Virus record (IMG/VR): IMGVR_UViG_3300031993_000049
Source: a virus
Lineage: Duplodnaviria > Heunggongvirae > Uroviricota > Caudoviricetes
DNA length: 64,000 nucleotides
Reading direction: 5' to 3' (one strand)
This document shows positions 10,025-64,000 of the stretch, piece after piece. Below the pieces are notes generated by a model, which searched no databases, had not been told where the DNA came from, and was given only the letters and a program-made list of their open reading frames with translations. Each line of letters starts with the position of its first letter. Within the stretch, counting starts at the first letter, position 1. The position numbers and the translations under genes were made by a program.

Positions 10025-10927
10025 ATGAAGTGTGAAGGAAAAATATTGATCATATTACAAGGTCCTCCTTGTTCTGGAAAGTCCACATGGGCAAAGGAAT
10101 ATCAGGAAAAGTATCCTGATACATTGGTTGCCAATCGTGATACTATTCGTTATACGCTTGGCGAAGGTAAGTATACAATGGACAGAGAAGATGAGGTCAC
10201 TGAGATTGAAATGGCCCAGGTAAAGGGTGCAATGGGTGCTGGTAGAACTGTTGTTATTGACGACACTAACCTTAATCCTAAGTATCTTAAGCCTTGGTTA
10301 GACCTTGCTGAAGAAAAAGGCTATGAGGTAAGATATGAGAAATTGTACATACCTTATGGCGAGGCAATGGAACGTTCTAAGAAGCGTAAGGAAGAAGGTG
10401 GTCTTTACATATCAAAAGATGTAATGCAGCGTTTCTATAAGAAATACTTCAAGGAAGAATTCGAGAAGGAAATGACTGATTATCGTGTATTCAATATGAA
10501 TAAGTATGACGATAAATTACCTAATTGTGTTATATGCGATTTAGACGGTACTATTGCTATGCATACGGGCCGAACACCATTCGAGTGGGACAGATTATTC
10601 GAAGACCAAATTGATTGGCGTATGAAGGATATTTTGCGTGCCCTGGCTGCTACTGGTGCTGAGATTATATTCTTGACTGGTAGACAGGAATCTGTAAGAG
10701 AGAAGACAGAGGAATGGCTTACAGCCAATTTCGGTTGGAAACATCAGTTGATTATGCGTCCAGACAGAGAGTTTGGTAAGGGTAATGCTGTTAAGAAGGA
10801 ACTATACGAAAAGTACGTTAAGGGTAAGTATAATGTAATCTGTGTGTTTGATGACGCAAATTATTGCGTTGATATGTGGCGCAATGAGGGATTGTTAACA
10901 TTACAGGTTCAAGATTCAGATTATTAA
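10025..10927 (+). CDS. pnk: bifunctional polynucleotide 5'-kinase / 3'-phosphatase (T4 Pnk-like)
   Basis: N-terminal Walker A: ILQGPPCSGKSTWAKEY. C-terminal HAD motif I: VICDLDGTIAMHTG. Late VFDDANY acidic motif. Confidence 0.85.
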   Translation: MKCEGKILIILQGPPCSGKSTWAKEYQEKYPDTLVANRDTIRYTLGEGKYTMDREDEVTEIEMAQVKGAMGAGRTVVIDDTNLNPKYLKPWLDLAEEKGYEVRYEKLYIPYGEAMERSKKRKEEGGLYISKDVMQRFYKKYFKEEFEKEMTDYRVFNMNKYDDKLPNCVICDLDGTIAMHTGRTPFEWDRLFEDQIDWRMKDILRALAATGAEIIFLTGRQESVREKTEEWLTANFGWKHQLIMRPDREFGKGNAVKKELYEKYVKGKYNVICVFDDANYCVDMWRNEGLLTLQVQDSDY

Positions 10928-11118: not shown

Positions 11119-11586
11119 ATGGAAAAAGAAGAATTACTGAAAACAGTGAACGGCAAAAACGTCACGTGTGCCGTTGTTATGATTGATAAGGAAGGTTCAA
11201 TCCTGGGATGTCACCCGACCAGCAGATCTGAGGTCTATGACTTCCCTAAGGGTTGTGCTGGATTTGCTGAGAAGGATGAGGATGCCGCAGTACGGGAACT
11301 ACAGGAAGAAACCAGTATTCTATTAACGCCTAATGAGTTGGCTCGACTTGTTGATGGTGGTATACACCCACATACTAAAGAGAAACTTATTCACATTTTT
11401 ATATTGAGGGTGGATGAATTACCAGATCCAGAATCATTGGTGTGTGAGTCATTCTATGAATACAAAGGGAAGACATATCCTGAGGTAGATAGATATGCAA
11501 TTATTACTAGGGATAAGAGAAATCTGTTCTTTGGGTGCCTGCAGGACAAATTTGAAATAATTGACAGTATAGCAAGTCTGATGTAA
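11119..11586 (+). CDS. NUDIX hydrolase
   Basis: Nudix box GCAGFAEKDEDAAVRELQEETSI (Gx5Ex5-7REUxEExxU). Confidence 0.75.
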   Translation: MEKEELLKTVNGKNVTCAVVMIDKEGSILGCHPTSRSEVYDFPKGCAGFAEKDEDAAVRELQEETSILLTPNELARLVDGGIHPHTKEKLIHIFILRVDELPDPESLVCESFYEYKGKTYPEVDRYAIITRDKRNLFFGCLQDKFEIIDSIASLM

Positions 11587-12024: not shown

Positions 12025-12426
12025 ATGAGAAAGAAAAAAGAAGAAGTAACAGAAGAGTTGGTACAGGAAGTTAAGTATCCAACAGTAGAAGAATTGGTAA
12101 TTGAGTGTATTAAACACGACATACCAGTAAACGGTGTTGACTATAATGGTAGAAACCTGGAGTATGAGATTGGCGGTTTCTCAAAGAGTGGTACTGGAAA
12201 ACTTACCACTGATGAGGACGGTAATACAATCTTAGTTACCAGATATAATACAGTAAACGAAGTAAGATCCTTTGAGGATATTGCTGACGTTGCATATGAT
12301 TGGTATTATAACTACCGAGACAGAGAACCATTTACACAGCCAGATTATAACTGGGCACCAATATTTGTTGAAATGGGTCTAATTGAGGAACGAATTGTTA
12401 AGACCTACGTCCCTGTAGTTCAATGA
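12025..12426 (+). CDS. hypothetical protein
   Basis: Co-oriented ORF. Confidence 0.7.
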   Translation: MRKKKEEVTEELVQEVKYPTVEELVIECIKHDIPVNGVDYNGRNLEYEIGGFSKSGTGKLTTDEDGNTILVTRYNTVNEVRSFEDIADVAYDWYYNYRDREPFTQPDYNWAPIFVEMGLIEERIVKTYVPVVQ

Positions 12427-12480
12427 ATAGAACGTGGGTTTCCTAAACCTAAGATCTGCGTTTGATTCGCAGCAGGGGTA
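12409..12480 (+). tRNA. candidate degenerate tRNA-Arg(CCU)-like cloverleaf
   Basis: Hand-folded 72-nt cloverleaf. Acceptor GTCCCTG/CAGGGGT (two terminal G.U). D-arm GTTC-AATGAATA-GAAC. Anticodon arm TGGGT-TTCCTAA-ACCTA with U33 and CCT at 34-36. T-arm CTGCG-TTTGATT-CGCAG. Lacks G18G19 and C56. Overlaps the last 18 nt of the upstream CDS. Confidence 0.3.
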
Positions 12481-12487
12481 CTTAAAA

Positions 12488-52081: not shown

Positions 52082-52738
52082 ATGGATAAAGATTTTGAAC
52101 AATACAAACAAGAGGCAAAGGACCGACTATTGAAAGCAATAGAGGAACAGGACAAACTTATCAAAGCAAAGGAAGAACTTATTAAGGAACTTCAGACTGA
52201 CTTTGATAGGATTGCTCGTTTTCAGCCTGGTAGTTTTATTGTTAATGAATATGGGCGTGGTTTAGAACCAACTTATTTTCTAATTGTTGGTATGCCGATA
52301 ATTGAGGCGGGTAAGATAAAAATACCAATTAGACACCATATTTATCCAATCTTTCATGGGACATCCATTTCTCTGAATATGTCTGGTGTTATTGATATGG
52401 TAGTGGCACCACTGGATAAGATGGATAAAATTAAAATTATCACCGCCCAAGAGTATTTTGAATTACAGAAGTCTAAATTAAAAGATGATTTCGAAAAAAG
52501 TATTCCTGCCTATGAAAAACGTATTGAAAACTGCAGAGAAGAAATCAACGAAATTAAGAAAGATATAAAACACTATCAAGATATAATTAAGGAATATAAA
52601 TCGATTGATTTTGACACGGTGTATTCCGAATATATTGATAAATATTTGAAAACTGATAGATACAATGATGCGGTGTTCAAAACTAAAAAATCAAACTATT
52701 GTGATTCATATAGATATAATATAGATTTAAATGTATAA
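52082..52738 (+). CDS. hypothetical coiled-coil protein
   Basis: Co-oriented ORF. Confidence 0.65.
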   Translation: MDKDFEQYKQEAKDRLLKAIEEQDKLIKAKEELIKELQTDFDRIARFQPGSFIVNEYGRGLEPTYFLIVGMPIIEAGKIKIPIRHHIYPIFHGTSISLNMSGVIDMVVAPLDKMDKIKIITAQEYFELQKSKLKDDFEKSIPAYEKRIENCREEINEIKKDIKHYQDIIKEYKSIDFDTVYSEYIDKYLKTDRYNDAVFKTKKSNYCDSYRYNIDLNV

Positions 52739-52740
52739 CT

Positions 52741-52929
52741 ATGATAATCGTTAAAGATTTAAGAGTACACAACAAGTACAGATTCACACATTTGGGCTGT
52801 TGTGAGTTCATTGCAGAAGGTAATGAATTTAAATGGACAACTGTAGGATATAATGAAACAGTTGCCGATGTTATTTGTCCACAGTGTGGTAAACAATTTT
52901 ATGATAGTCCAACAGTAATACCAGAATAA
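52741..52929 (+). CDS. small zinc-ribbon-like protein
   Basis: Co-oriented ORF. Confidence 0.55.
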   Translation: MIIVKDLRVHNKYRFTHLGCCEFIAEGNEFKWTTVGYNETVADVICPQCGKQFYDSPTVIPE

Positions 52930-52931
52930 TT

Positions 52932-53324
52932 ATGGAACAGTTTGTTTGTACAACAATAGAACAGAGTAAGGCATTGCTTGACGCAGGCCTGGACATTGAA
53001 TCTGCAGATATGTATTATCGTTACGATTATAACGAACATACCTGTGAAAACAGTGTACCAAAAATACTTGAAGTATCAGTATGGGATGATCCTAATTGTA
53101 AAGATATACCAGCCTGGAGTGTTGGTAAATTGATCAATCTTATGCCTGATACAATGTATGGGCCATATCCGCCCGATCATTCAACGGACCTTATGATAAA
53201 TAATAAGGTAGTTAATTACTTTGACTGGACTGGAATGCAACATGGTCCCGATTTTACTGGCGGCAGTTTACGAGATAACTGTGTAGAAACAATAAAATGG
53301 CTATTAAAAAACGAAATCATATGA
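52932..53324 (+). CDS. Family-B-prime paralog (TIEQSKALLDAGLD)
   Basis: N-terminus similar to 2687. Confidence 0.65.
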   Translation: MEQFVCTTIEQSKALLDAGLDIESADMYYRYDYNEHTCENSVPKILEVSVWDDPNCKDIPAWSVGKLINLMPDTMYGPYPPDHSTDLMINNKVVNYFDWTGMQHGPDFTGGSLRDNCVETIKWLLKNEII

Positions 53325-53611
53325 CAAAGACATTTAGACAATTAGAACGAGGTGATAAGATTTTAGTTAAAAACATAACAAAACATGTACCTTGCAATGT
53401 TACAATAGACGACCATCATTACATAACGGAAGTTGTTAGTGAAGATAAAACAATGACTATTGACACATTCTCTCATTATGATAATGGTCTTGGAGGTAAG
53501 TTGGTAGAGTTTTATGCATATCCTTATTTAGGTGTAACTCTCAGATTTGAAATGGCTGTAGACGACTTAGATAAAACAGAAACAGAAAAATATAAAATAT
53601 TAGACATATGA
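53297..53611 (+). CDS. hypothetical protein
   Basis: Co-oriented ORF. True start may be the internal ATG at 53321. Confidence 0.5.
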   Translation: MAIKKRNHMTKTFRQLERGDKILVKNITKHVPCNVTIDDHHYITEVVSEDKTMTIDTFSHYDNGLGGKLVEFYAYPYLGVTLRFEMAVDDLDKTETEKYKILDI

Positions 53612-54006
53612 CAAATCAAGATAAAGAACTATTATTGAAAGACCTTTGTGGAAGGTTGTATTATGGCGTTAAATTTCACTATTTCTCAGAATTTGCTGAT
53701 GGTGAAGACCCAGAATTTGATAATACTATCGTAATGATAGATATGGCTGATGAGCAAATCCTTGACGAAGACCATGAAGATTATATTCCAATCAGACAGA
53801 TAGTGCCGTATCTCCGTCCATTATCTAGTATGACTGATGAAGAAGATAAAGAATTTGCTCTTCTTCAAACTGACTTTTATGTTGATGGGTTTCTTTATCC
53901 AATTGCAGCAGTAAATATGATTAATTGGCTTAATAAACATCATTTTGACTACAATGGATTAATTGAAAAAGGCTTAGCATTGGAGGCACCTAAAGATATG
54001 TATTAA
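53608..54006 (+). CDS. Family-A paralog 1 of tandem array
   Basis: MTNQDKELLLKDLCGRLYYGV ... VPYLRPLSSMTDEE ... HHFDYNGLIEKGLALEAPKDMY. Confidence 0.8.
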   Translation: MTNQDKELLLKDLCGRLYYGVKFHYFSEFADGEDPEFDNTIVMIDMADEQILDEDHEDYIPIRQIVPYLRPLSSMTDEEDKEFALLQTDFYVDGFLYPIAAVNMINWLNKHHFDYNGLIEKGLALEAPKDMY

Positions 54007-54008
54007 TT

Positions 54009-54413
54009 ATGGAAAAAGAAAAACAATATTTTAAGACTCAGATTACACGCAATGGATTAGATCTTATCGTTAAAGATATGTCTGCTCGTATAGCATACGG
54101 AGTAATGGTTTCCGATGTACATATGGATGGAGATGTATTAACCTCGCCATATAAATTGTGGGATATTATTATTGATGACTGGTACGATGAAAATTTTGAT
54201 AATTACCAAATGTGCTATCTTCGTCCCATGTCAAGTATGACAAAAAAAGAAAAAGAAGAGTTTGAAAAAACTTGTTTCTTTTCCAATGAGATTGGTACTA
54301 TTCAAACTATAGAAAGTGCTGATTGGTTAAATGCACATCACTTTGATTACCGTGGTTTAATTGAATTAGGTTTAGCATTTAAGGCCCCTAAAGATATGTA
54401 TAAATTCGAATAA
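54009..54413 (+). CDS. Family-A paralog 2 (divergent N-terminus)
   Basis: CYLRPMSSMTKKEKEE ... HHFDYRGLIELGLAFKAPKDMYKFE. Confidence 0.8.
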   Translation: MEKEKQYFKTQITRNGLDLIVKDMSARIAYGVMVSDVHMDGDVLTSPYKLWDIIIDDWYDENFDNYQMCYLRPMSSMTKKEKEEFEKTCFFSNEIGTIQTIESADWLNAHHFDYRGLIELGLAFKAPKDMYKFE

Positions 54414-54415
54414 TT

Positions 54416-54850
54416 ATGACACAAGAAGAAAAAGAATTATTAGCAAAAGATATTTTTAGTCGTGCAATGTGTGGATTAAAGGTACAATATCATGGAGAAA
54501 TATATACTTTGGGATATAACCTTTATCTGGAAGAAAGTTCAACAGCGTTTGAAAGTTATCCAATGAAATGTTTTCTAAGTAAGATTGAGGAAATTAAACC
54601 CTATCTTCGCCCAATGTCAAGTATGACTGAGGAAGAACGTAATGATTTTGAAGATGAATCTCATGGCTGGTTTTATGTTAATGATGATGGTGAAATATAT
54701 CCTATTGGTCAATTTACTGATAGTGGTGAATTTGAAGATGGAATATTAGGTGGTATAGAATATTTAAATAAAAACCATTTTGATTACCGTGGTTTAATTC
54801 ATAGAGAACTTGCTCTTGAAGCACCTGAAGATATGTATAAAACAAAATAA
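54416..54850 (+). CDS. Family-A paralog 3
   Basis: MTQEEKELLAKDIFSR ... KPYLRPMSSMTEEE ... NHFDYRGLIHRELALEAPEDMYK. Confidence 0.8.
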   Translation: MTQEEKELLAKDIFSRAMCGLKVQYHGEIYTLGYNLYLEESSTAFESYPMKCFLSKIEEIKPYLRPMSSMTEEERNDFEDESHGWFYVNDDGEIYPIGQFTDSGEFEDGILGGIEYLNKNHFDYRGLIHRELALEAPEDMYKTK

Positions 54851-54852
54851 CT

Positions 54853-55302
54853 ATGACACAAGAAGATAAAGAACTATTATTGACAGACATTTGTGCAAGA
54901 CTACCTTATGGTGTTAAAGTAGAAAATACAAGTTTTTCAGAATCACAAATACATACACTGTTCGGTAGAGTTTCTGATGATGAATTTCTGATGTTAGAAA
55001 CATATAAAAGTGTTGGTGGTGAAGATTATAGAAGAGTTACCGATGATATACATTATACAGGTTATTTAGAAAACATTAAACCTTATCTCCGTCCTATGTC
55101 AAGTATGACTGAAAAGGAATGTTATGAATTGCATTTCATTAGAAGCAATTTTACGGATAATTGGAAGTACATCAAGACTCCGATTCCGTTGAGTATCGCT
55201 AACTATAATCAAGTCGATTGGCTCAACAGTCATCACTTTGATTATCGAGGTTTAATTGAAAAAGGGCTTGCACTTGAAGCACCTGCAGATATGTATAAAT
55301 AA
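54853..55302 (+). CDS. Family-A paralog 4
   Basis: MTQEDKELLLTDICARLPYGV ... KPYLRPMSSMTEKE ... HHFDYRGLIEKGLALEAPADMYK. Confidence 0.8.
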   Translation: MTQEDKELLLTDICARLPYGVKVENTSFSESQIHTLFGRVSDDEFLMLETYKSVGGEDYRRVTDDIHYTGYLENIKPYLRPMSSMTEKECYELHFIRSNFTDNWKYIKTPIPLSIANYNQVDWLNSHHFDYRGLIEKGLALEAPADMYK

Positions 55303-55313
55303 CTTTTATTGAT

Positions 55314-55514
55314 ATGATAAAGACATGTTACTATGCTATTATAGATAAATGGTATGATACGTATATTGGCAATGACAACAAGAAACACCGTAAATACTAT
55401 ACTAATATAATACATTATATGGAAGGTGGATATCCAATGAAATACATAGAAAATATTAATAAACTACCTAGACATCAATATAGTTATATTTGGAGTTTTT
55501 GTCCAATTAAGTAA
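55314..55514 (+). CDS. hypothetical protein interrupting the array
   Basis: Co-oriented ORF. Confidence 0.5.
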   Translation: MIKTCYYAIIDKWYDTYIGNDNKKHRKYYTNIIHYMEGGYPMKYIENINKLPRHQYSYIWSFCPIK

Positions 55515-55527
55515 ATAATAGATAGAT

Positions 55528-55887
55528 ATGACACAGGAAGATAAAGAATTATTATTGAAAGATCTTTGTGCAAGGTTACCTTATGGCGTAATGTTATATG
55601 TTGAAGGTATAAAGAAAAATATTAAGTTATTTGCAGTTGAAGATACTGGAATAAACGGTTTTCAATTTCAGTTTGTTAAACCATATCTCCGTTCAATGTC
55701 TTCGATGACAGAAGATGAAATAGAAGAATATAATAATATAACTCTTATTCATACTCCTTGGGGCATTATGACAGACAGAATAATCGAATTAATCAATTTT
55801 CTCAACTCTCGCCACTTTGACTACAGAGGACTCATAGATAAAGGTATTGCACTTGAAGCACCTAAAGATATGTATAAATTTGATTAA
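55528..55887 (+). CDS. Family-A paralog 5
   Basis: MTQEDKELLLKDLCARLPYGV ... KPYLRSMSSMTEDE ... RHFDYRGLIDKGIALEAPKDMYKFD. Confidence 0.8.
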   Translation: MTQEDKELLLKDLCARLPYGVMLYVEGIKKNIKLFAVEDTGINGFQFQFVKPYLRSMSSMTEDEIEEYNNITLIHTPWGIMTDRIIELINFLNSRHFDYRGLIDKGIALEAPKDMYKFD

Positions 55888-55889
55888 TT

Positions 55890-56051
55890 ATGAAAAAATA
55901 TCACTCAAAAGGTACATGTTCTCAATGTCTTTTTGGTCCATATTATAAAAATGGTAAGAATTGGTGTACTGAGCATAATAGAGAAATTAAAAATCCAAAT
56001 ATAGAACATTGTAATCAATTTTGGAGAGGTGATTTTGCAAAAAGAAAATAA
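55890..56051 (+). CDS. small Cys-containing protein
   Basis: 53-aa ATG ORF (CSQC...CTEH...HC). Confidence 0.4.
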   Translation: MKKYHSKGTCSQCLFGPYYKNGKNWCTEHNREIKNPNIEHCNQFWRGDFAKRK

Positions 56052-56061
56052 TTTAAAAATT

Positions 56062-56217
56062 ATGACACAAGAAGAAATTAAACAATATCTTAAAGACAAT
56101 TTGAAATTGGGATATTTTAAATATAGATCGTGCGGTCAAAATTACATAGGTTTTAAACTTACGTTAGGCGAAGAAATAATCAGTGAAATTAGACCAAGTA
56201 TAAAATCCTTTTTTTAA
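56062..56217 (+). CDS. short ORF with the Family-A MTQEE N-terminal start (possible truncated family member)
   Basis: MTQEEIKQYLKDNLKLGYFKY. Same atgacacaagaagaa start sequence as the array genes. Confidence 0.4.
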   Translation: MTQEEIKQYLKDNLKLGYFKYRSCGQNYIGFKLTLGEEIISEIRPSIKSFF

Positions 56218-56401
56218 TTATGATCACAGTAATAAATAATTACATACAGTGTGACGAATGTGGTAGGGATTTGGCATATGACAATAGTGATACCTATGAA
56301 TCCTGGAACTGGAACCATAGATATAGAGTAATATATTTGGATTGCCCTAAATGTGGTAATTCTATTGCAATAAGACGATTAGAAGAAAAAAATGTATAAT
56401 T

Positions 56402-56728
56402 ATGTACAGAAAGTATGGAATAGCAATTTTACCTTGGAGAGGGGACCCAAAAACATTAATCGAATGGAGAAGTGAAGATGATGCATTCGTTAATGTAAGT
56501 GATGAACATTTTGGAGGTATACCAGAAGACAAGGTTGATTTTGATATTGATCACGTCGTAGATTTTCTATTAGGTGAAGGAAGATACCAAATGGGATTAT
56601 ACTTACCTGATGAAATATTAAAATTAATGAAACAAAGATGCCCAGAATCGGAAACTTGGTTGATGGGACAAATTGATTATATGATTAGGCAAAACAGAAG
56701 ATATTATGACACAAGAAGAATTATTTGA
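56402..56728 (+). CDS. hypothetical protein
   Basis: Co-oriented ORF. Confidence 0.6.
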   Translation: MYRKYGIAILPWRGDPKTLIEWRSEDDAFVNVSDEHFGGIPEDKVDFDIDHVVDFLLGEGRYQMGLYLPDEILKLMKQRCPESETWLMGQIDYMIRQNRRYYDTRRII

Positions 56729-56912
56729 AATAGTAGCAAAAGGATATGAAGCAGCATTAAGTTCATGTTTTGACGGTGGAGCATTATATGCAAGAGGATT
56801 TGTCGACGGAATGGCATTTCAAAAAGATGGAACCATTCCAATGAGCAAACTAGATAGAATACTTAAAGAAATAGAAGATAAAAAGAAAAATGAAAAGACC
56901 GAAGAAAATTGA
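56706..56912 (+). CDS. hypothetical protein (MTQEE start)
   Basis: Co-oriented ORF. Confidence 0.55.
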   Translation: MTQEELFEIVAKGYEAALSSCFDGGALYARGFVDGMAFQKDGTIPMSKLDRILKEIEDKKKNEKTEEN

Positions 56913-57144
56913 AATTGGAGACACTGTTACGTGGATTAAAGAAAAAAGACACGTTGTATCATTCCTGGAAGATAATAAAGAGCCATTAGTTGTTTTTAAA
57001 ATTTGGTACCCGTCTAGAGGGTGGAAATATTATTGTGAATATCTTAAGTTGTTCCTTTATAATATTTGCCTGCAGGAAGAATACACTAAAGCAAAAAGAA
57101 ATAAACTTTACAAATTAAATGGATTAGTATATGGAGAATGGTAA
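56890..57144 (+). CDS. hypothetical protein
   Basis: Co-oriented ORF. Confidence 0.55.
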   Translation: MKRPKKIEIGDTVTWIKEKRHVVSFLEDNKEPLVVFKIWYPSRGWKYYCEYLKLFLYNICLQEEYTKAKRNKLYKLNGLVYGEW

Positions 57145-57463
57145 TGTAAACATAATGATCCCAGTACCAACAAAAGAATTTACTGAGGAATTGAAAGAAA
57201 AAAAAGGCGTTGATATTAATGACGTATTAGCCAGACTTGTGTATGACTTTCTGGATAACGTTAAAAAAGACAACCCAACTGAAATAATACAAATTAGTGT
57301 TACTGTAAAACAACTTGCCGAACTGGACGTTTATAATATAAATGCTCCAGCAATGATAACATCCGCATTTAAAAAAGAATTAGAGGCTTTATTAGATAGT
57401 TGTGAAAAAACTGATAAAAATATACATCAACCAAACGGTCAAGTAAGGTTTGACAAATTATAA
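57131..57463 (+). CDS. hypothetical protein
   Basis: Co-oriented ORF. Confidence 0.6.
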   Translation: MENGNVNIMIPVPTKEFTEELKEKKGVDINDVLARLVYDFLDNVKKDNPTEIIQISVTVKQLAELDVYNINAPAMITSAFKKELEALLDSCEKTDKNIHQPNGQVRFDKL

Positions 57464-57505
57464 AATGATCAAAATTTTTATAAATCATTTAAAACATTAT
57501 AATAT

Positions 57506-57796
57506 ATGAATACATTTGAATTAATTATTATTACATTAGCACTTGTTTATGTTGTTTCTTCACTGTATTTTGCCATATCTGGTAGAGTACTTGCAAGAAA
57601 AAAAGAAAAGAAAGATGACGAAAGGTATGAAAATCAACATAACATTGAAGACCAAATTACTGTCCTTACTCAAAGACTGGGTGCAGTCCTAGCAGAGAAT
57701 GAAAGACTAAATGGTGTAGTAAGAAGTTGGATGGCACAGGCAAATGATTACAAAATTAGACTTGATGCTGCATTAAAAGAAAAAGAAGGTAATTAA
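57506..57796 (+). CDS. hypothetical protein with N-terminal TM helix
   Basis: Co-oriented ORF. Confidence 0.6.
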   Translation: MNTFELIIITLALVYVVSSLYFAISGRVLARKKEKKDDERYENQHNIEDQITVLTQRLGAVLAENERLNGVVRSWMAQANDYKIRLDAALKEKEGN

Positions 57797-57799
57797 ACA

Positions 57800-58096
57800 A
57801 TGATCAAAGAAAGTGACTTCATAATTGAAGAATTAAAAAAGTGGGATAAGAAATTTGATGGCATTCATATTCGTTATGGATATGATAAACCTTCAGCGTA
57901 TCACGTTATAGAAATATCACCCGAATCAATAAGACGTGGTGATATTGACTATATGAATACTGAATATAAGTTCTGGGAGAGGTTTTCTAAAATCTATCCT
58001 AAATCAGACTTGTTAATATCTAACCCTAATTATAATACGGAATGTATTAGTGAAAATTTATTATACGATAATTATTATGGTAGAGTTTACAATTAA
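57800..58096 (+). CDS. hypothetical protein
   Basis: Co-oriented ORF. Confidence 0.6.
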   Translation: MIKESDFIIEELKKWDKKFDGIHIRYGYDKPSAYHVIEISPESIRRGDIDYMNTEYKFWERFSKIYPKSDLLISNPNYNTECISENLLYDNYYGRVYN

Positions 58097-58238
58097 ATAC
58101 GGGGAACAATGCCCGAACATTAAAGAAGTGAAAGTTACTTCAAGAGAAATATGCAATAAATGTAAACACAAAAAATATTCAACCAAATGTTTTGTTGTGT
58201 GTAATGAAGACAAGGATAGTAAATTTTTTTATTTATAA
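58077..58238 (+). CDS. small Cys-rich protein
   Basis: Trimmed to internal ATG. Confidence 0.45.
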   Translation: MVEFTIKYGEQCPNIKEVKVTSREICNKCKHKKYSTKCFVVCNEDKDSKFFYL

Positions 58239-58374
58239 TTATGATAGGTGTTTTATTTAAAGGTAATTGGCATCAGGGTTTCAATTCATTAATCGAGGCT
58301 GAAAAATATGTCCATGATAAGATTGAAAATCAAGGATATAAAGAAGAAGATTGGAGTTATATGTTTTATTAATT

Positions 58375-58617
58375 ATGGGAAAAGCAACAAATCAAGAAGA
58401 TTATATCAAGGGATATAAAAAAGGTGTAGAGGATGGTAAAAAAGACGCAATGATCAAATTGCAGGAAATGAATTTCAACGAAGGATTGCCTTCTAATGAG
58501 ACTCTGTATAAGATATTCGAACTATTGGAAAAAGTAAAGAAACAGGATGCTGATTCTCATAGTTTGTATATGAACGCGTGGGAACATTATGCCAATTATA
58601 TTACACAAAATTGGTAA
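58375..58617 (+). CDS. hypothetical protein
   Basis: Trimmed to ATG. Confidence 0.55.
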   Translation: MGKATNQEDYIKGYKKGVEDGKKDAMIKLQEMNFNEGLPSNETLYKIFELLEKVKKQDADSHSLYMNAWEHYANYITQNW

Positions 58618-58645
58618 AAAATACTAGTAAAATGAATACTTGGAT

Positions 58646-58666
58646 CAGTTTGGCACGGTATTTGTA
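58646..58666 (+). promoter_or_regulatory. conserved 21-mer CAGTTTGGCACGGTATTTGTA (copy 4) heading a ~120-bp leader paralogous to 12546-12679
   Basis: Exact 21-mer. Downstream leader shares CACTCTCGCA, CTTTGC, AAATTGAAAAA and AAAATT blocks with the 12.5-kb copy. Confidence 0.45.
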
Positions 58667-58768
58667 GGATAAAAGATGTGGGGTTGAATATACATTTCAC
58701 TCTCGCATCTTTTGATTTAAAAAATATGTATTATCTTTGCAACAGAAAATTGAAAAAGGAATAAAATT

Positions 58769-59605
58769 ATGAAATTTGGAAATGTAGTATTGTACAGTAA
58801 AGGTTGGTATCAACGTCGTGGTGATTCTGATAAGATATGGATGGATCTCATCCATTGTATCTCTGCAGACGGTTGGACATTGTTTAGTAAAAAGGATGTT
58901 GTTGCCTGGTGTCTCCATCGTCTAGACGAAATGAAAGAAGATGAGTTGCTTCGTAATAACAAGAATATGCTAAGTCTTTCACGTTTGTACGAGGAAGTAA
59001 ACCGTTGTAAGAGTTTCTGGAACTACTGGCACCACGACGAGGAACTTTCTACTGATGATGCAATTATCGCTGTATTCCTTAGTACTGTTTCTTGCCTTGA
59101 GAAAACCTGTTTCAGTGAAGGTGTTCGTCCTAGCGAACTGGTTCTTCCTTTGACATACCAAGATGCGTATTACGACGATGGAAGATATAACACGGATCAT
59201 AAACCGTCATTTAAGTTTGCACAAATGCATTGTGACGTTATGAAACGCATTGAAGAGTTTTTCCCTGACTTCAAAGAACAGGACCCGAAGAGTATCTATC
59301 TTATTGAAGATTTCGAGACTGTTGAGGGTAATATTCGCGGTAAAAAAATTGAGGACGTACTTGTTCTCAACGGTAGCGACAATCTTAACGATTGCATCGA
59401 GGTAACAGTCGGCGGTGATGATATCATACACAACAGTTTTGTTTTCATCAATAGAAAAAAGGCATATCTTGACAAAGGTATCTACGACCACTGTATTGAT
59501 ATTGATAACAATACTCAATATACTGTTAGAATACAGAAAAAAGAATCCATATGGGAGGATGATGAACCAGAATATATCATTCGTTCAATTAAAAAAGTAA
59601 AATAA
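58769..59605 (+). CDS. hypothetical protein (278 aa)
   Basis: First ORF after the conserved leader. Confidence 0.75.
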   Translation: MKFGNVVLYSKGWYQRRGDSDKIWMDLIHCISADGWTLFSKKDVVAWCLHRLDEMKEDELLRNNKNMLSLSRLYEEVNRCKSFWNYWHHDEELSTDDAIIAVFLSTVSCLEKTCFSEGVRPSELVLPLTYQDAYYDDGRYNTDHKPSFKFAQMHCDVMKRIEEFFPDFKEQDPKSIYLIEDFETVEGNIRGKKIEDVLVLNGSDNLNDCIEVTVGGDDIIHNSFVFINRKKAYLDKGIYDHCIDIDNNTQYTVRIQKKESIWEDDEPEYIIRSIKKVK

Positions 59606-59607
59606 TT

Positions 59608-59913
59608 ATGGCAAAGAAAAGAAAAAATAATTTAAACGAAGAGGTAGAAGAATATCTCAAGAAACATTGGACCAGAGTTCCTGACGAGCATTTGGTAGAC
59701 GAACCTGTATATTTCGTCCTGGAAGACGATCTTAAGGCACTTGCAAAACACTTTGCTAACTGGGGTCGTAAACATGTCGAAATGGAAGGTGAGATTCTGG
59801 AAAACTTTGATGGCCCTGTTCTCGATTTCGATGAAAACGAAATGGCAGAGAAACTTGAAGTCTGCGGGTTTAAAACGTTTGATAAAGTAAAAATCACAAT
59901 CGATAAGATATGA
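59608..59913 (+). CDS. hypothetical protein
   Basis: Co-oriented ORF. Confidence 0.65.
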   Translation: MAKKRKNNLNEEVEEYLKKHWTRVPDEHLVDEPVYFVLEDDLKALAKHFANWGRKHVEMEGEILENFDGPVLDFDENEMAEKLEVCGFKTFDKVKITIDKI

Positions 59914-60260
59914 TGGTAGACGAAGAAAGGCAAGAAATTGTAAATAAAAAAGCCGAAGAGGAAAACAACTTTTTTCTTCGTGCAGCCGCTGGATTAATTC
60001 CACAAGAGGAACACTTCAAGGAAGGTTTCATAAAGGGCGTAGAATGGCAAAAAAACGGCATTTGGAGGAAATGTGCCAAAGAGGTACCCACGCATATGGG
60101 CGAAGAAATAATCGTTCTGTGCCGAAACAAGAATAAACCCGATGGTATTTGGCTTTCTGACCTTATCCAATGTTGGGAAGGAAAGTGGGAACCGCGAGTT
60201 AACTATGAGACTCCAGTTTACTGGACATATGTTAACGACATACTCCCCGATGTTGATTAA
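59910..60260 (+). CDS. hypothetical protein
   Basis: 4-nt overlap. Confidence 0.65.
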   Translation: MMVDEERQEIVNKKAEEENNFFLRAAAGLIPQEEHFKEGFIKGVEWQKNGIWRKCAKEVPTHMGEEIIVLCRNKNKPDGIWLSDLIQCWEGKWEPRVNYETPVYWTYVNDILPDVD

Positions 60261-60286
60261 TTTTTGTATATTTAGATTGTCAAGAT

Positions 60287-60307
60287 CAGTTTGGCACGGT
60301 ATTTGTA
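60287..60307 (+). promoter_or_regulatory. conserved 21-mer CAGTTTGGCACGGTATTTGTA (copy 5)
   Basis: Exact copy, 14 nt upstream of the ATG of 60321. Confidence 0.45.
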
Positions 60308-60320
60308 GAATAAAAATAGT

Positions 60321-60542
60321 ATGACATACGAAGAATACATATCATTTATTTGGGAATGTGTTGCACAATGTCCTAAGTACTGGCGGAAAGGTCAGTCAGT
60401 GTTCAATATAATTGACAAAAAGTTTGGTGATGTTGCCAGGAATGTTCAATACATTGACGGTATTGACTGCTTCCACCAAGACGAAATGATTGAACCATTT
60501 ATTGCTAAATGTTGGGAACGAATAAATAAAAAACAATTATGA
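60321..60542 (+). CDS. hypothetical protein
   Basis: Co-oriented ORF. Confidence 0.6.
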   Translation: MTYEEYISFIWECVAQCPKYWRKGQSVFNIIDKKFGDVARNVQYIDGIDCFHQDEMIEPFIAKCWERINKKQL

Positions 60543-60748
60543 AACACGTTTATGTTGTTGTAAATAAAAGTATGATGATGCTTGGTGTCTTTACTACTTG
60601 GAAAAATCTACAGATGGCAATGGCCGCTCTTAAGGAAAGTGGAGAATCTAAAGCATACTATGCCAAAGTTGAAGTTGATACTTTCGATAAGTTGCTTCCT
60701 AACTTCTGGACAATGCACTATGAGAAATTAGAAGAGGTTGTATTTTAA
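60539..60748 (+). CDS. hypothetical protein
   Basis: 4-nt overlap. Confidence 0.6.
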   Translation: MKHVYVVVNKSMMMLGVFTTWKNLQMAMAALKESGESKAYYAKVEVDTFDKLLPNFWTMHYEKLEEVVF

Positions 60749-60763
60749 ATAAAGAATAAAACA

Positions 60764-61384
60764 ATGATAACATTAGAAGAAATAAAGAAACTTAACGGTT
60801 TGTATAGCCTGCCGAAGTATATCCACGTTAACAAACATATACTTCTGGACTACCGACTGTTCTATGCACTTGCAGAACCCGATCCTGAAAGGGACTTCGT
60901 GTACGACTGTGATGTGTACCTCAATAAGTATGGTATCAATCTTCAGAGACCGTACGTATGGGAGCATTATCAGCAGAAGGAGTTCATTATGGCTATCCTT
61001 ACCGAAAAGGAACTGGACCCTTTGATAATAATTACACACTATAAGGGTCCTATTGAAAGAGACCACTGCATCAATTACGTTATTGACGGCAAACAAAGAT
61101 TAACAACGATCAAAAAATTTGCTCATAACGAATTTCCAATTCAAGTAGATGGTAAAGATTACTATTTCAAAGATTTTGATGCGGAATTGAGGAAGTTTTT
61201 TATCTCACGTGTAAACTATATGGTTGCCACCGTGTATTATTCTTATGATGATATGCCAATTACCGACGATATGAAGATTACTCTCTTCAATTTCTACAAT
61301 TTCTCTGGCACACCACAGACGGAGGAACATAAAAATAAGTTAATCAAATTAATGAAAAAAGAAGATGAACCAGGATGTAATTAA
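60764..61384 (+). CDS. DUF262 / ParB-like nuclease-domain protein
   Basis: VIDGKQRLTTIKKF matches the DGQQR motif of the DUF262 (GmrSD N-terminal) family. Confidence 0.65.
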   Translation: MITLEEIKKLNGLYSLPKYIHVNKHILLDYRLFYALAEPDPERDFVYDCDVYLNKYGINLQRPYVWEHYQQKEFIMAILTEKELDPLIIITHYKGPIERDHCINYVIDGKQRLTTIKKFAHNEFPIQVDGKDYYFKDFDAELRKFFISRVNYMVATVYYSYDDMPITDDMKITLFNFYNFSGTPQTEEHKNKLIKLMKKEDEPGCN

Positions 61385-61673
61385 AGTTACAGATAATCTG
61401 TATTTTGACAGTTCTTTCGTTGCCAGGAAAGTGGTCCTGGACTTACTAGAACGTCTCACGGCACATAATCAAGTTCGATTGAATGATCTCAACGGAAACG
61501 CTTCTTGTACGTCCGTTAGCGTAACTGACGAAGGTGTAATGAGAAATACTTGGGAGGAAAGTTATCACAATGGTGACATTTGGGATTTCAAATCCACCCT
61601 TATTACAAATGATGAAAACGATGTAAAAATCGTTCAAACAGCAATTAACTTAATTAAAATATATAAACTGTAA
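61365..61673 (+). CDS. hypothetical protein
   Basis: Co-oriented ORF. Confidence 0.6.
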   Translation: MNQDVIKVTDNLYFDSSFVARKVVLDLLERLTAHNQVRLNDLNGNASCTSVSVTDEGVMRNTWEESYHNGDIWDFKSTLITNDENDVKIVQTAINLIKIYKL

Positions 61674-61687
61674 AATATAAATTTATT

Positions 61688-61939
61688 ATGATTTATCTTA
61701 TATTATATTTAGTTGGAAGTTTAGTTTCACTAATATGGATGTTAAAAATCACCAAAGAAGTTGAGGATGTTTTAACAATTAAAGACTTATTAGGCTTAAT
61801 TTTAATATCTATTGCTTCGTGGCTGTCTGTTTTTATCATTATCAGGGAAGAATTAATAAGTAGAGGTGTTATTGATAAAATGCTTGAAAAATTAGACAAC
61901 TGGTTAAATAAAGAAATTTATGAGTTCGATAAAAAATGA
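61688..61939 (+). CDS. small membrane protein
   Basis: Hydrophobic ORF. Confidence 0.55.
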   Translation: MIYLILYLVGSLVSLIWMLKITKEVEDVLTIKDLLGLILISIASWLSVFIIIREELISRGVIDKMLEKLDNWLNKEIYEFDKK

Positions 61940-61950
61940 AAATGTAGCAT

Positions 61951-62271
61951 ATGACATTGAATGAATTACCAAAAGAAATAGTTATTGACGGAATTACGTA
62001 CACGTTAAAAGGTGAAATTAATAATGATGCACAACTGGGTAAATTGTATTTTGTAGGGTATTATCCTCCAGAAGAAAATGGAGTACCCCCATTTGTTAAA
62101 TCTGACAAAGCAAAACTCTATTTGATTTCTGTGGGTGGTTTTCGCGGTACTTTTAACACACCAGAAGAAACACTGGTTGATGAAGCGTGTAACGATATGT
62201 TAGAAAGGTTGCAAGGTGCCAGAATACATTATCCGTCGATAGACGAAGCATTAAAAGAAAAATTATTATAA
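61951..62271 (+). CDS. hypothetical protein
   Basis: Co-oriented ORF. Confidence 0.6.
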   Translation: MTLNELPKEIVIDGITYTLKGEINNDAQLGKLYFVGYYPPEENGVPPFVKSDKAKLYLISVGGFRGTFNTPEETLVDEACNDMLERLQGARIHYPSIDEALKEKLL

Positions 62272-62295
62272 AACAATTTAAAACTTATACAAATT

Positions 62296-62571
62296 ATGAT
62301 TTTTTGGGAATATTTTTTAGCCATGTTCTATGCAGCATGGGCTGGCGTTTGCATTCACTGGGCAATTGAAATGTTTGATAGTGAATCCTACGGATTTGGG
62401 GTATTAATGATTCTGTTAGCCTCTTTAACTCTTGCGTTATCTACAAACACACTGAATAGTGCTGTTAATCGAGCAATCGTTGAAAGTGTAGAAAACACAC
62501 CTGTTGAACTCACGGATCCAGTACAGGTTACTGACACAGTTTATGACTCAACAAATGATTTTAAATTATGA
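62296..62571 (+). CDS. small membrane protein
   Basis: Hydrophobic ORF. Confidence 0.55.
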   Translation: MIFWEYFLAMFYAAWAGVCIHWAIEMFDSESYGFGVLMILLASLTLALSTNTLNSAVNRAIVESVENTPVELTDPVQVTDTVYDSTNDFKL

Positions 62572-63179
62572 AAACATTAATAATCGTTGATTTTCAATAT
62601 GATTTCTGCAATCCCAATGGTACACTGTATGTACCTGGTGCAGAAGAAGCAGAGGAAGCAATTGTAAAACACATCAATTCTGATGAAGAAATCGGTGAGG
62701 TTGTGTTTACTCTTGACTGGCACCCAATCAATCACTGTTCGTTTAAAATAAACGGTGGTGAATGGCCTACTCACTGTCTCCAGTATTCTCAAGGTGCTGG
62801 TATATCTCAGAAAATTATGAATGCCTGTCTCGATCAAGGAATACCTGTTAAGTTTTTCTTGAAAGGTGATTTGTATAACGTTGAAGAATACGCCGCTTTT
62901 ATTCATTCAACTCATTACCCATTTTCTTATCTACTTCAGGGAGTTAAGCAAACAGCATTTGTAAATCAAAGTGGAAGTTCTTACATCCGTTTTGAAAATA
63001 AAGAAATTGAAGTCTGTGGCCTTGCTGGAGACTATTGTGTGCGTGAAACTATCGACGCAATCAATGGCAAAAAACCAATAGAAAAACTGTCGGTTTTTAT
63101 GGACGGTATCAAATCCATTGACGGTGGTAAAACATTTAATGAATTTTTGAACGAACATCCAGAAATTAAAAAAGTATAA
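62568..63179 (+). CDS. pncA: nicotinamidase (isochorismatase-fold PncA)
   Basis: LIIVDFQYDFCNPNGTLYVPGA, LDWHPINHCSF, WPTHCLQYSQGAGI, GLAGDYCVRETI: matches the PncA catalytic D/K/C triad context. Confidence 0.8.
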   Translation: MKTLIIVDFQYDFCNPNGTLYVPGAEEAEEAIVKHINSDEEIGEVVFTLDWHPINHCSFKINGGEWPTHCLQYSQGAGISQKIMNACLDQGIPVKFFLKGDLYNVEEYAAFIHSTHYPFSYLLQGVKQTAFVNQSGSSYIRFENKEIEVCGLAGDYCVRETIDAINGKKPIEKLSVFMDGIKSIDGGKTFNEFLNEHPEIKKV

Positions 63180-63181
63180 TT

Positions 63182-64000
63182 ATGTTGACAAGAAACATTT
63201 ATAATTACGAAACAGTCTTCAATGTAATGGTTGAAGAGACAGCCAAATATCTCAAAAAGAATGGCTTAAAAACTATGGTCCTTGGTATATCTGGTGGACT
63301 TGATTCTACTGTATGTGCGGCAATCTGTCACGAGGTAACTAAACGCTATCCTGAATTCCGTTTCATTGGTGTTAGTCTGCCTTGCACCAGTAATACCGAA
63401 CGCGAAAATGACAGCGCAGAAATGGCAATGAAAGCGTTTTGCAATGAACGTCACACTGCTAATCTGCAGGGTCAGTACGAATCAATGAAATCTCTTTGTG
63501 AGACTTACTTCCAGTCCACCAATATTTCCCAGGGTAATATCAAGGCACGCCTTCGTATGATTTACCTGTACAACATCGCTTCTGTAACAAGAGGCCTTGT
63601 AATTGATACAGATAATCTTACCGAACACTATCTTGGGTTCTTCACGTTGCATGGAGACCAGGGAGACTTCAATCCGATTGGTGGACTTTGGAAACACGAA
63701 GTATATGCGTTGTGCCATTACTTGTTTACTGCTTATTATAAATCAGCAAGTTCACAGTACTATGCACTGAAAGCGGCATACGACATCACACCTACTGACG
63801 GTAATGGTGTTGCTGATGGTGGTGATATGGCACAGATTGCTCCAGGACATACCTACTTTGACGTAGATGATATTCTCGATACTTATCTTGAATATCGTGG
63901 GCACCACCCAGAGGAATACAATATTGCAATGGAAGAACTGAATAAAAAATACGGTGCAGATACCGTTGATAAGGTTCTTCGCAGATGCGATAATTCTGAA
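63182..64000 (+). CDS. nadE: NH3-dependent NAD+ synthetase, 3' end outside window
   Basis: PP-loop LGISGGLDSTV. NIKARLRMIYLYNIA, VIDTDNLTEHYLGFFTLHGDQGDFNPI match NadE. No stop before window end. Confidence 0.85.
   Translation, partial: MLTRNIYNYETVFNVMVEETAKYLKKNGLKTMVLGISGGLDSTVCAAICHEVTKRYPEFRFIGVSLPCTSNTERENDSAEMAMKAFCNERHTANLQGQYESMKSLCETYFQSTNISQGNIKARLRMIYLYNIASVTRGLVIDTDNLTEHYLGFFTLHGDQGDFNPIGGLWKHEVYALCHYLFTAYYKSASSQYYALKAAYDITPTDGNGVADGGDMAQIAPGHTYFDVDDILDTYLEYRGHHPEEYNIAMEELNKKYGADTVDKVLRRCDNSE

Follow-up and report, generated by a model that had tools for sequence, protein, structure and literature searches.

Organization of the locus

The 64,000-nucleotide stretch of DNA analysed here, referred to as the window, belongs to a virus of the class Caudoviricetes (IMG/VR record IMGVR_UViG_3300031993_000049), and its end cuts through a group of genes of nicotinamide adenine dinucleotide (NAD+) metabolism. 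An exact-protein look-up assigned the window to the contig ENA ERZ27257203:k141_2048293, which is 253,946 bp long. The locus L004 is 100% identical to window positions 52568-64000 and extends 9.2 kb past the window end; coordinates past 64000 are window-equivalent values derived from it. Together with 9.8 kb upstream of the window (locus L174), 83 kb of the 254 kb were examined. No near relative was found among GenBank phages by megablast with positions 61900-64000.

Two adjoining genes are located on the plus strand at the window edge. The first, pncA (62568-63179), encodes a predicted nicotinamidase of 203 residues, and the second, nadE (63182-64000 in the window and up to 64054 on the source contig), an NH3-dependent NAD+ synthetase; the spacing between them is 2 bp. 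They are followed by pncB (64061-65275), which encodes a nicotinate phosphoribosyltransferase and starts 7 bp after nadE, by genes for a 60-residue Zn-ribbon protein (65279-65461) and a 275-residue protein without a family match (p275, 65474-66301), and by a gene for a 184-residue Nudix hydrolase (66304-66858).

In the Preiss-Handler pathway, PncA converts nicotinamide and water to nicotinate and NH3, and PncB joins nicotinate to phosphoribosyl pyrophosphate (PRPP), giving nicotinate mononucleotide (NaMN). NadD forms nicotinate adenine dinucleotide (NaAD) from NaMN and ATP, and NadE converts NaAD, ATP and NH3 to NAD+. The gene pair at the window edge probably forms the 5' end of a module for NAD+ salvage by the Preiss-Handler route, located in a phage genome of approximately 254 kb. 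The identities of the genes and their adjacency are evident from the locus, and the module is conserved across many phages; the enzymatic activities, the substrate of the Nudix hydrolase, the use of a host NadD and the physiological role are predicted from sequence.

The Nudix gene overlaps by its stop codon with a gene for an arabinanase-like glycosidase of family GH43 (66855-67814; L004 14288-15247). An F420-0:gamma-glutamyl ligase-like protein is encoded 1.5 kb beyond GH43 (69348-70463; L004 16781-17896). Both genes are unusual phage cargo. A scan for sigma-70 promoters gave 43 matches, compared with 38.5 +/- 6.7 in shuffled sequence, and thus no excess. A terminator-like hairpin downstream of GH43 (67821-67846) looks like the sole meaningful signal of the promoter and terminator scan.

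Identification of the nicotinamidase

The product of pncA matches the nicotinamidase/pyrazinamidase model PRK11609 of NCBIfam (E 2.9e-17) and the nicotinamidases of Pyrococcus, Leishmania and yeast in the PDB (1ilw, 3r2j and 2h0r; E 2e-18 to 5e-15). Alignments place the Asp-Lys-Cys triad at D8, K99 and C157 and the Asp/His/His metal site at D50, H52 and H69, and both sets of residues are unchanged throughout 26 homologues. The metal-site residues align to the DWHP...HC motif of 1ilw. Residues D10 and C133 of P. horikoshii PncA fall inside the aligned blocks of the PDB search with the phage protein. We take the phage triad to be equivalent to D10/K94/C133 of the P. horikoshii enzyme, an assignment that beyond D10 and C133 comes from residue count. 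An AlphaFold (AF2) model built on the 26 homologues has a predicted local distance difference test score (pLDDT) of 88, and a Foldseek search of the PDB with this model returned nicotinamidases at ranks 1-11 (E 8e-12 to 1e-7).

The protein scores under the curated cut-offs of both Pfam PF00857 (24.2 versus 27 bits) and PRK11609 (63.2 versus 174 bits), which makes it a divergent member of the family. These scores are what could be expected if the protein were another isochorismatase-family amidase, for example of the carbamoylsarcosine or maleamate amidase type. However, the invariant Asp/His/His metal site is typical of nicotinamidases, the best matches in both sequence and structure are all nicotinamidases with other amidases ranking lower, and the gene is linked to pncB in phages as well as in bacteria. 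We therefore consider a different amidase activity very unlikely and regard the 203-residue product as a divergent yet convincing predicted nicotinamidase, based on sequence and on the model of its fold.

NAD+ synthetase and nicotinate phosphoribosyltransferase

The complete nadE gene (L004 10615-11487) encodes 290 residues, of which the window holds the first 273 codons and misses the last 17. NadE matches Pfam PF02540 (NAD_synthase, 3.7e-40), passes the cut-off of TIGR00552 (129 versus 63.65 bits) and contains the P-loop SGGLDS of the SGGxDS type. It consists of a single N-type ATP pyrophosphatase domain without a glutaminase domain, and its best matches in the PDB are NH3-dependent enzymes (4xfd, E 1.2e-21). 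The original prediction, which had named the two genes at the window edge as those of the first and last enzymes of the Preiss-Handler route, was thus correct about both identities, PncA being supported by family, PDB, active-site and fold evidence and NadE by TIGR00552, Pfam and the PDB, and it gave the coordinates of the two genes exactly.

The suggestion that a pncB homologue might follow beyond position 64000 proved right. PncB, directly after NadE, passes the cut-off of the equivalog model TIGR01514 (341.3 versus 269.55 bits) and has the N-terminal and catalytic domains of NAPRTases (Pfam PF17767 and PF04095). Its best solved relative is a nicotinate phosphoribosyltransferase (PDB 2im5, E 5e-74).

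The adjoining position of pncA and nadE, only 2 bp apart, had led to the idea that PncA and NadE alone constitute a new two-enzyme phage pathway of NAD+ reconstitution, comparable to Adps+Namat or Nampt+Nmnat. By established Preiss-Handler chemistry, however, the conversion of nicotinate to NaAD needs a phosphoribosyltransferase and an adenylyltransferase. PncB is encoded directly after NadE, and in relatives it is mostly located between PncA and NadE. A stand-alone pair is thus extremely unlikely, and the ordinary four-step route takes its place: the presence of PncB and the Nudix hydrolase past the window end indicates that the pair is the front of a Preiss-Handler module.

Adenylylation of nicotinate mononucleotide

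The same suggestion had extended to nadD, and here it failed: the 83 kb examined yielded no NadD homologue. Searches of the window and of the following 9.2 kb by tblastn, two hidden Markov models (built from 3 and 13 phage NadDs), phmmer and a scan for the HxGH motif all remained without a match. The Pfam matches of the genes called in the 9.8 kb upstream include no cytidylyltransferase-like protein, and a global search with a NadD profile placed none on the source contig among its best 120 matches.

A non-homologous NaMN adenylyltransferase could be sought in p275, with or without the 60-residue Zn ribbon. The p275 gene lies between those of PncB and the Nudix hydrolase, where nadD is located in relatives, and the closest relative of the phage keeps the block PncA-NadE-PncB-Znr-p275. 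Nevertheless, p275 has no Pfam or NCBIfam match and no (H/T)xGH motif. Its homologues form just 6 clusters, the distant ones are not beside NAD genes, and its AF2 model is poor (pLDDT 54), beta-rich and not Rossmann-like. We rejected p275 as a replacement of NadD because of the missing family match, the 6 clusters, the lack of NAD linkage in distant homologues and the model, and give the idea almost no credence. NaMN is probably adenylylated by the essential NadD of the host or by the product of a gene elsewhere in the phage genome, and the host enzyme offers the simplest reading.

Nudix hydrolases

The Nudix hydrolase of the module shares 43% identity with its counterpart in the module of the phage contig MT835470. 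Its Nudix box, GX5EX7REUXEEXGU, is intact and is accompanied by a proline at position +16, and the same holds for 26 of the 30 relatives with a strict box. Such a downstream proline was reportedly described by Dunn et al. in 1999 as a marker of ADPRase-type Nudix enzymes. The nearest NCBIfam and PDB entries, all with weak E-values, are the Nudix domain of bifunctional NMN adenylyltransferase/Nudix enzymes of the NadM type, the Nudix-type ADP-ribose-responsive repressor (NCBIfam NtrR), and the unnamed MutT/nudix chains 2fml, 3gz8 and 3gz5 of the PDB. We take 3gz5 and 3gz8 to be the ADP-ribose-binding regulator NrtR of Shewanella. The module Nudix is most likely an ADP-ribose pyrophosphatase, a prediction from these similarities.

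A second NUDIX gene is present within the window (11119-11586), and its product had been considered a possible handler of ADP-ribose for the NAD+ genes. This did not hold, since the conserved partner is the separate gene at 66304-66858. Similarity to the module Nudix is confined, in the NUDIX at 11119, to a 35-residue stretch at the Nudix box, and the best matches of the latter protein, which are weak, are RNA pyrophosphohydrolases; it was rejected as a partner of the module on these grounds. Its gene follows that of a polynucleotide kinase-phosphatase (10025-10927) at a distance of two genes and is close to a gene for tRNA-Arg(CCT) (12409-12481). Pfam matches in the window also include two RNA ligases, a homologue of the tRNA-His guanylyltransferase Thg1, and YqeY. 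Together, the kinase-phosphatase, NUDIX, tRNA-Arg, RNA ligases, Thg1 and YqeY look like a tool-kit for RNA or tRNA repair.

The module in other phages

An IMG/VR scan with a PncA alignment identified 215 viral contigs with a PncA relative, and gene neighbourhoods were obtained from 80 loci. Within 10 kb of PncA, these contained PncB (77/80), the same Nudix (61/80), NadD (59/80) and NadE (56/80), and the usual gene order was PncA-PncB-NadE-NadD-Nudix. The arrangement is the same in MT835470 and MT839920, which are human-gut phage contigs from GenBank. In a curated 660-kb Lak megaphage, Pfam matches on the called genes give the order PncA-NadD-PncB-(IS605 insertion)-NadE-Nudix. The insertion carries an IS605 OrfB/TnpB-type gene on the opposite strand between pncB and nadE (L171 10560-11846). 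All the module genes are annotated in the record of the Sinorhizobium phage Phosso. The annotated record of the cultivated Bacillus phage G contains the Nudix gp273, the PncA-like gp275, the nicotinate phosphoribosyltransferase (NaPRT) gp277, NadD gp281 and NadE gp283.

Compared with the five-gene modules of MT835470, MT839920, the IMG/VR contigs, the Lak megaphage, phage G and Phosso, the proteins of the present phage are 34-49% (PncA), about 40% (NadE) and 43% (Nudix family) identical, and PncB is homologous. The phage differs from them in its rearranged gene order, pncA-nadE-pncB, in having no NadD nearby, and in two lineage-specific inserts, the Zn ribbon and p275. It also lacks a conserved cysteine-rich protein of 181 residues that is encoded near the module Nudix in 50 of the 80 IMG/VR loci and directly after it in MT835470 (L001 13424-13969). 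The 181-residue protein may be a sixth component of the module. It has no significant Pfam match, and an assignment as SLOG/YpsA-like was set aside as a guess without Pfam support.

The closest relative, the 392,767-bp contig with locus L087, shows about 89% DNA identity over the region from NadE to p275. Behind the shared block it carries a deoxyribosyltransferase-like/phosphoesterase gene in place of the Nudix and GH43 genes. The middle of pncA (window positions 62827-63138) has diverged between the two phages, so that PncA is 60% identical overall, whereas the flanks have about 90% DNA identity. This pattern suggests recombination or rapid change within pncA. In another phage, a 392,218-bp contig from a related ENA metagenome assembly (L090), the genes of PncB and NadD are intermingled with those of a NADAR domain protein and a PARG-like ADP-ribose glycohydrolase, which places NAD+ synthesis genes beside enzymes that reverse ADP-ribosylation.

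Origin of the genes and host

The closest bacterial counterparts of the phage PncB, with 60-65% identity, come from rumen and hindgut metagenomes and belong to Prevotella, Cryptobacteroides and further Bacteroidales. These nearest bacterial genes make Bacteroidales of the gut and rumen the likely host order. In 14 of 80 bacterial loci, pncB adjoins a pncA gene whose product is 36-42% identical to the phage PncA. The G+C content is 36-40% in the module genes, 35% in the window and about 54% in the four closest bacterial pncB genes checked. The phage genes thus differ from the pncA-pncB salvage genes of Bacteroidales in their lower G+C content and in being joined to nadE and Nudix in one co-directional block. 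The protein identities and the G+C values point to Bacteroidales as the most likely source of the genes and to a subsequent, partial adaptation of their composition. The pathway is already present in the host lineage.

Proposed role in the infected cell

Based on the gene content of the module, a pathway of NAD+ recycling can be proposed. PncA would deamidate nicotinamide to nicotinate, which PncB would join to PRPP to form NaMN. NadD, either of the host or from a gene elsewhere in the phage genome, would make NaAD, which the NH3-dependent NadE of the phage would amidate to NAD+, the NH3 released by PncA balancing that used by NadE. The module Nudix may split ADP-ribose into AMP and ribose-5-phosphate, feeding PRPP synthesis; in that case both products of NAD+ glycohydrolysis would be recycled. 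As a net result, infected cells would regenerate NAD+ more rapidly from the products of its breakdown. Selection for the module would most likely come from the loss of NAD+ during infection, including its cleavage by NADase defences of the host.

Several observations weigh against this reading. PncA stays under both curated cut-offs, neither NadD nor an NMN adenylyltransferase (NMNAT) was found in the sequence examined, the ADP-ribose pyrophosphatase activity of the module Nudix is predicted from weak similarity, and the closest relative has no Nudix at the corresponding position. Furthermore, Bacteroidales, the likely host order, possess their own pncB and often pncA, and the phage copies are therefore not strictly needed for the chemistry.

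A role in countering NADase defence is plausible and has already been proposed. A 70-residue Tad2-like (Thoeris anti-defence 2) protein, encoded 4.2-4.4 kb upstream of window position 1 (L174 5322-5534), covers the full profile of Pfam PF11195 (30.7 bits versus a cut-off of 25, E 4.7e-07). With this protein, the phage may in addition be able to sequester Thoeris signalling nucleotides. The presence of this gene in the same genome is weak circumstantial support for a counter-defence role.

Alternatively, the genes could form a general auxiliary metabolic module that provides more NAD+ from environmental niacin or nicotinamide, for phage replication and for enzymes that use NAD+, and is not specifically tied to defence. 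They duplicate a housekeeping pathway of the host, from which they derive, and sit among metabolic genes, including those of GH43 and the F420-ligase-like protein. In the study of Li et al. 2024, phage NAD+ genes are mostly presented as a system of independent synthesis and use (PMC11662467). However, PncA and a putative ADP-ribose-type Nudix would act on the products of NAD+ cleavage and not on an imported vitamin, and no transporter is encoded beside the module. The Pfam survey of the window, which listed 25 of 33 families, contained no obvious NAD+-consuming enzyme among them, and the Tad2-like anti-Thoeris homologue also argues against a purely metabolic function. The combination of PncA, the putative ADP-ribose-type Nudix and the Tad2-like protein is circumstantial evidence that favours recycling over vitamin uptake, and we consider the general metabolic role rather unlikely.

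We speculate that PncA-PncB-NadE(-NadD)-Nudix is a fourth, deamidated-route pathway of NAD+ reconstitution, which would recycle nicotinamide through PncA and ADP-ribose through the Nudix hydrolase and PRPP. It would enable large phages of Bacteroidales and Bacillus to escape immunity of the Thoeris, defence-associated sirtuin (DSR) or SIR2 type, in the present phage with the help of the host NadD. This is a tentative proposal, although quite a possible one.

Other genes of the phage

Upstream of the window, the phage encodes a short (361-residue) homologue of adenylosuccinate synthetase (L174 557-1642; PF00709, E 1e-18). The Lak megaphage has a similar gene (L171 5690-6823) 2 kb upstream of its NAD module. 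Some short phage homologues of PurA are PurZ, an enzyme of phages with 2-aminoadenine genomes. The window also contains paralogous proteins of approximately 130-150 residues, encoded at 231-632 and 52932-55302, with no Pfam match for the member scanned; the gene at 231-632 shares 43-53% identity with five genes that lie in a row at 52.9-55.3 kb. A 206-residue protein encoded 1.2 kb upstream of pncA (60764-61384) is limited to the DUF262 domain that forms the N-terminal part of GmrSD-type restriction enzymes (Pfam PF03235, E 3e-12).

Comparison with known phage NAD+ pathways

Two phage NAD+ reconstitution pathways were described by Osterman et al. 2024, NARP1 (Adps+Namat) and NARP2 (Nampt+Nmnat); PncA, PncB, NadE and the Preiss-Handler route do not appear in their preprint. 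A third, NARP3 (PnuC+NadR), was reported in 2026 (PMC13464706). The present module resembles NARP2 in its overall conversion, which would likewise lead from nicotinamide and PRPP to NAD+, and in its phosphoribosyltransferase, since PncB is of the same superfamily as Nampt. NARP2 proceeds through amidated nicotinamide mononucleotide (NMN) in two steps, and its counter-defence function was demonstrated experimentally, whereas the module described here, known from sequence, would use deamidated nicotinate, NaMN and NaAD in four steps that include NadE. No Nampt or cytidylyltransferase-like protein, the parts of NARP2, was found in the 83 kb. With NARP1 and NARP3, the module would share the overall purpose of rebuilding NAD+ in the infected cell, yet ADP-ribose would be recycled at most indirectly, through the Nudix hydrolase. 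NARP1 employs the PRPS-like Adps together with Namat, whereas the only phosphoribosyltransferase found here passes the NaPRT equivalog model, and no PRPS-like family was among the 25 of 33 Pfam families listed for the window. PnuC and NadR, the parts of NARP3, were absent both from these families and from the Pfam matches of the flanking loci.

In an in silico study published in Microbiome, Li et al. 2024 found that 174 of 668 jumbo phages of animal guts encode a complete salvage or Preiss-Handler pathway (PMC11662467). They described clusters such as pncB-nadD-nadE, mentioned phage pncA, and suggested that NAD+ synthesis by phages may counter the depletion of NAD+ in the host (PMC11662467). 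A 2025 paper on phage G notes its PncA-like gene and a possible recycling of NAD+. The up-regulation reported in the PA5oct paper concerns the pncA-pncB1-nadE operon of the host and not phage genes. In the literature, we encountered neither a phage nicotinamidase nor a phage Preiss-Handler module that had been tested by experiment. The novelty claimed in the original prediction, which had set the genes apart from the two enzyme pairs described until then, has been overtaken: Preiss-Handler clusters and the counter-depletion idea are published (PMC11662467), NARP3 has been added (PMC13464706), and complete modules are present in phage G, Phosso and the Lak megaphage.

If the module does counter NAD+ depletion, its four-step deamidated route would join the three pathways by which phages have so far been shown to reconstitute NAD+ and would reveal how phages of the dominant gut Bacteroidales handle TIR and SIR2 defences. 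The full module of the cultivated Bacillus phage G (gp273-gp283) provides a testable system. For the window alone, the analysis mainly gives the correct annotation of a known type of phage metabolic cluster. The phage shares with the 'NAD-jumbo phages' of Li et al. (PMC11662467) its large genome of gut-type metagenomic origin, the clustering of pncB with nadE, a phage-encoded pncA and the proposed role. It differs from their Kuafu_71, in which the cluster is pncB-nadD-nadE, by its order pncA-nadE-pncB and by the lack of nadD in the cluster (PMC11662467). It differs further in the conserved Nudix, a probable fifth component that does not appear in the main text of the published survey (PMC11662467). 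The cluster is thus a slightly rearranged example of a type of phage metabolic module that has already been described.

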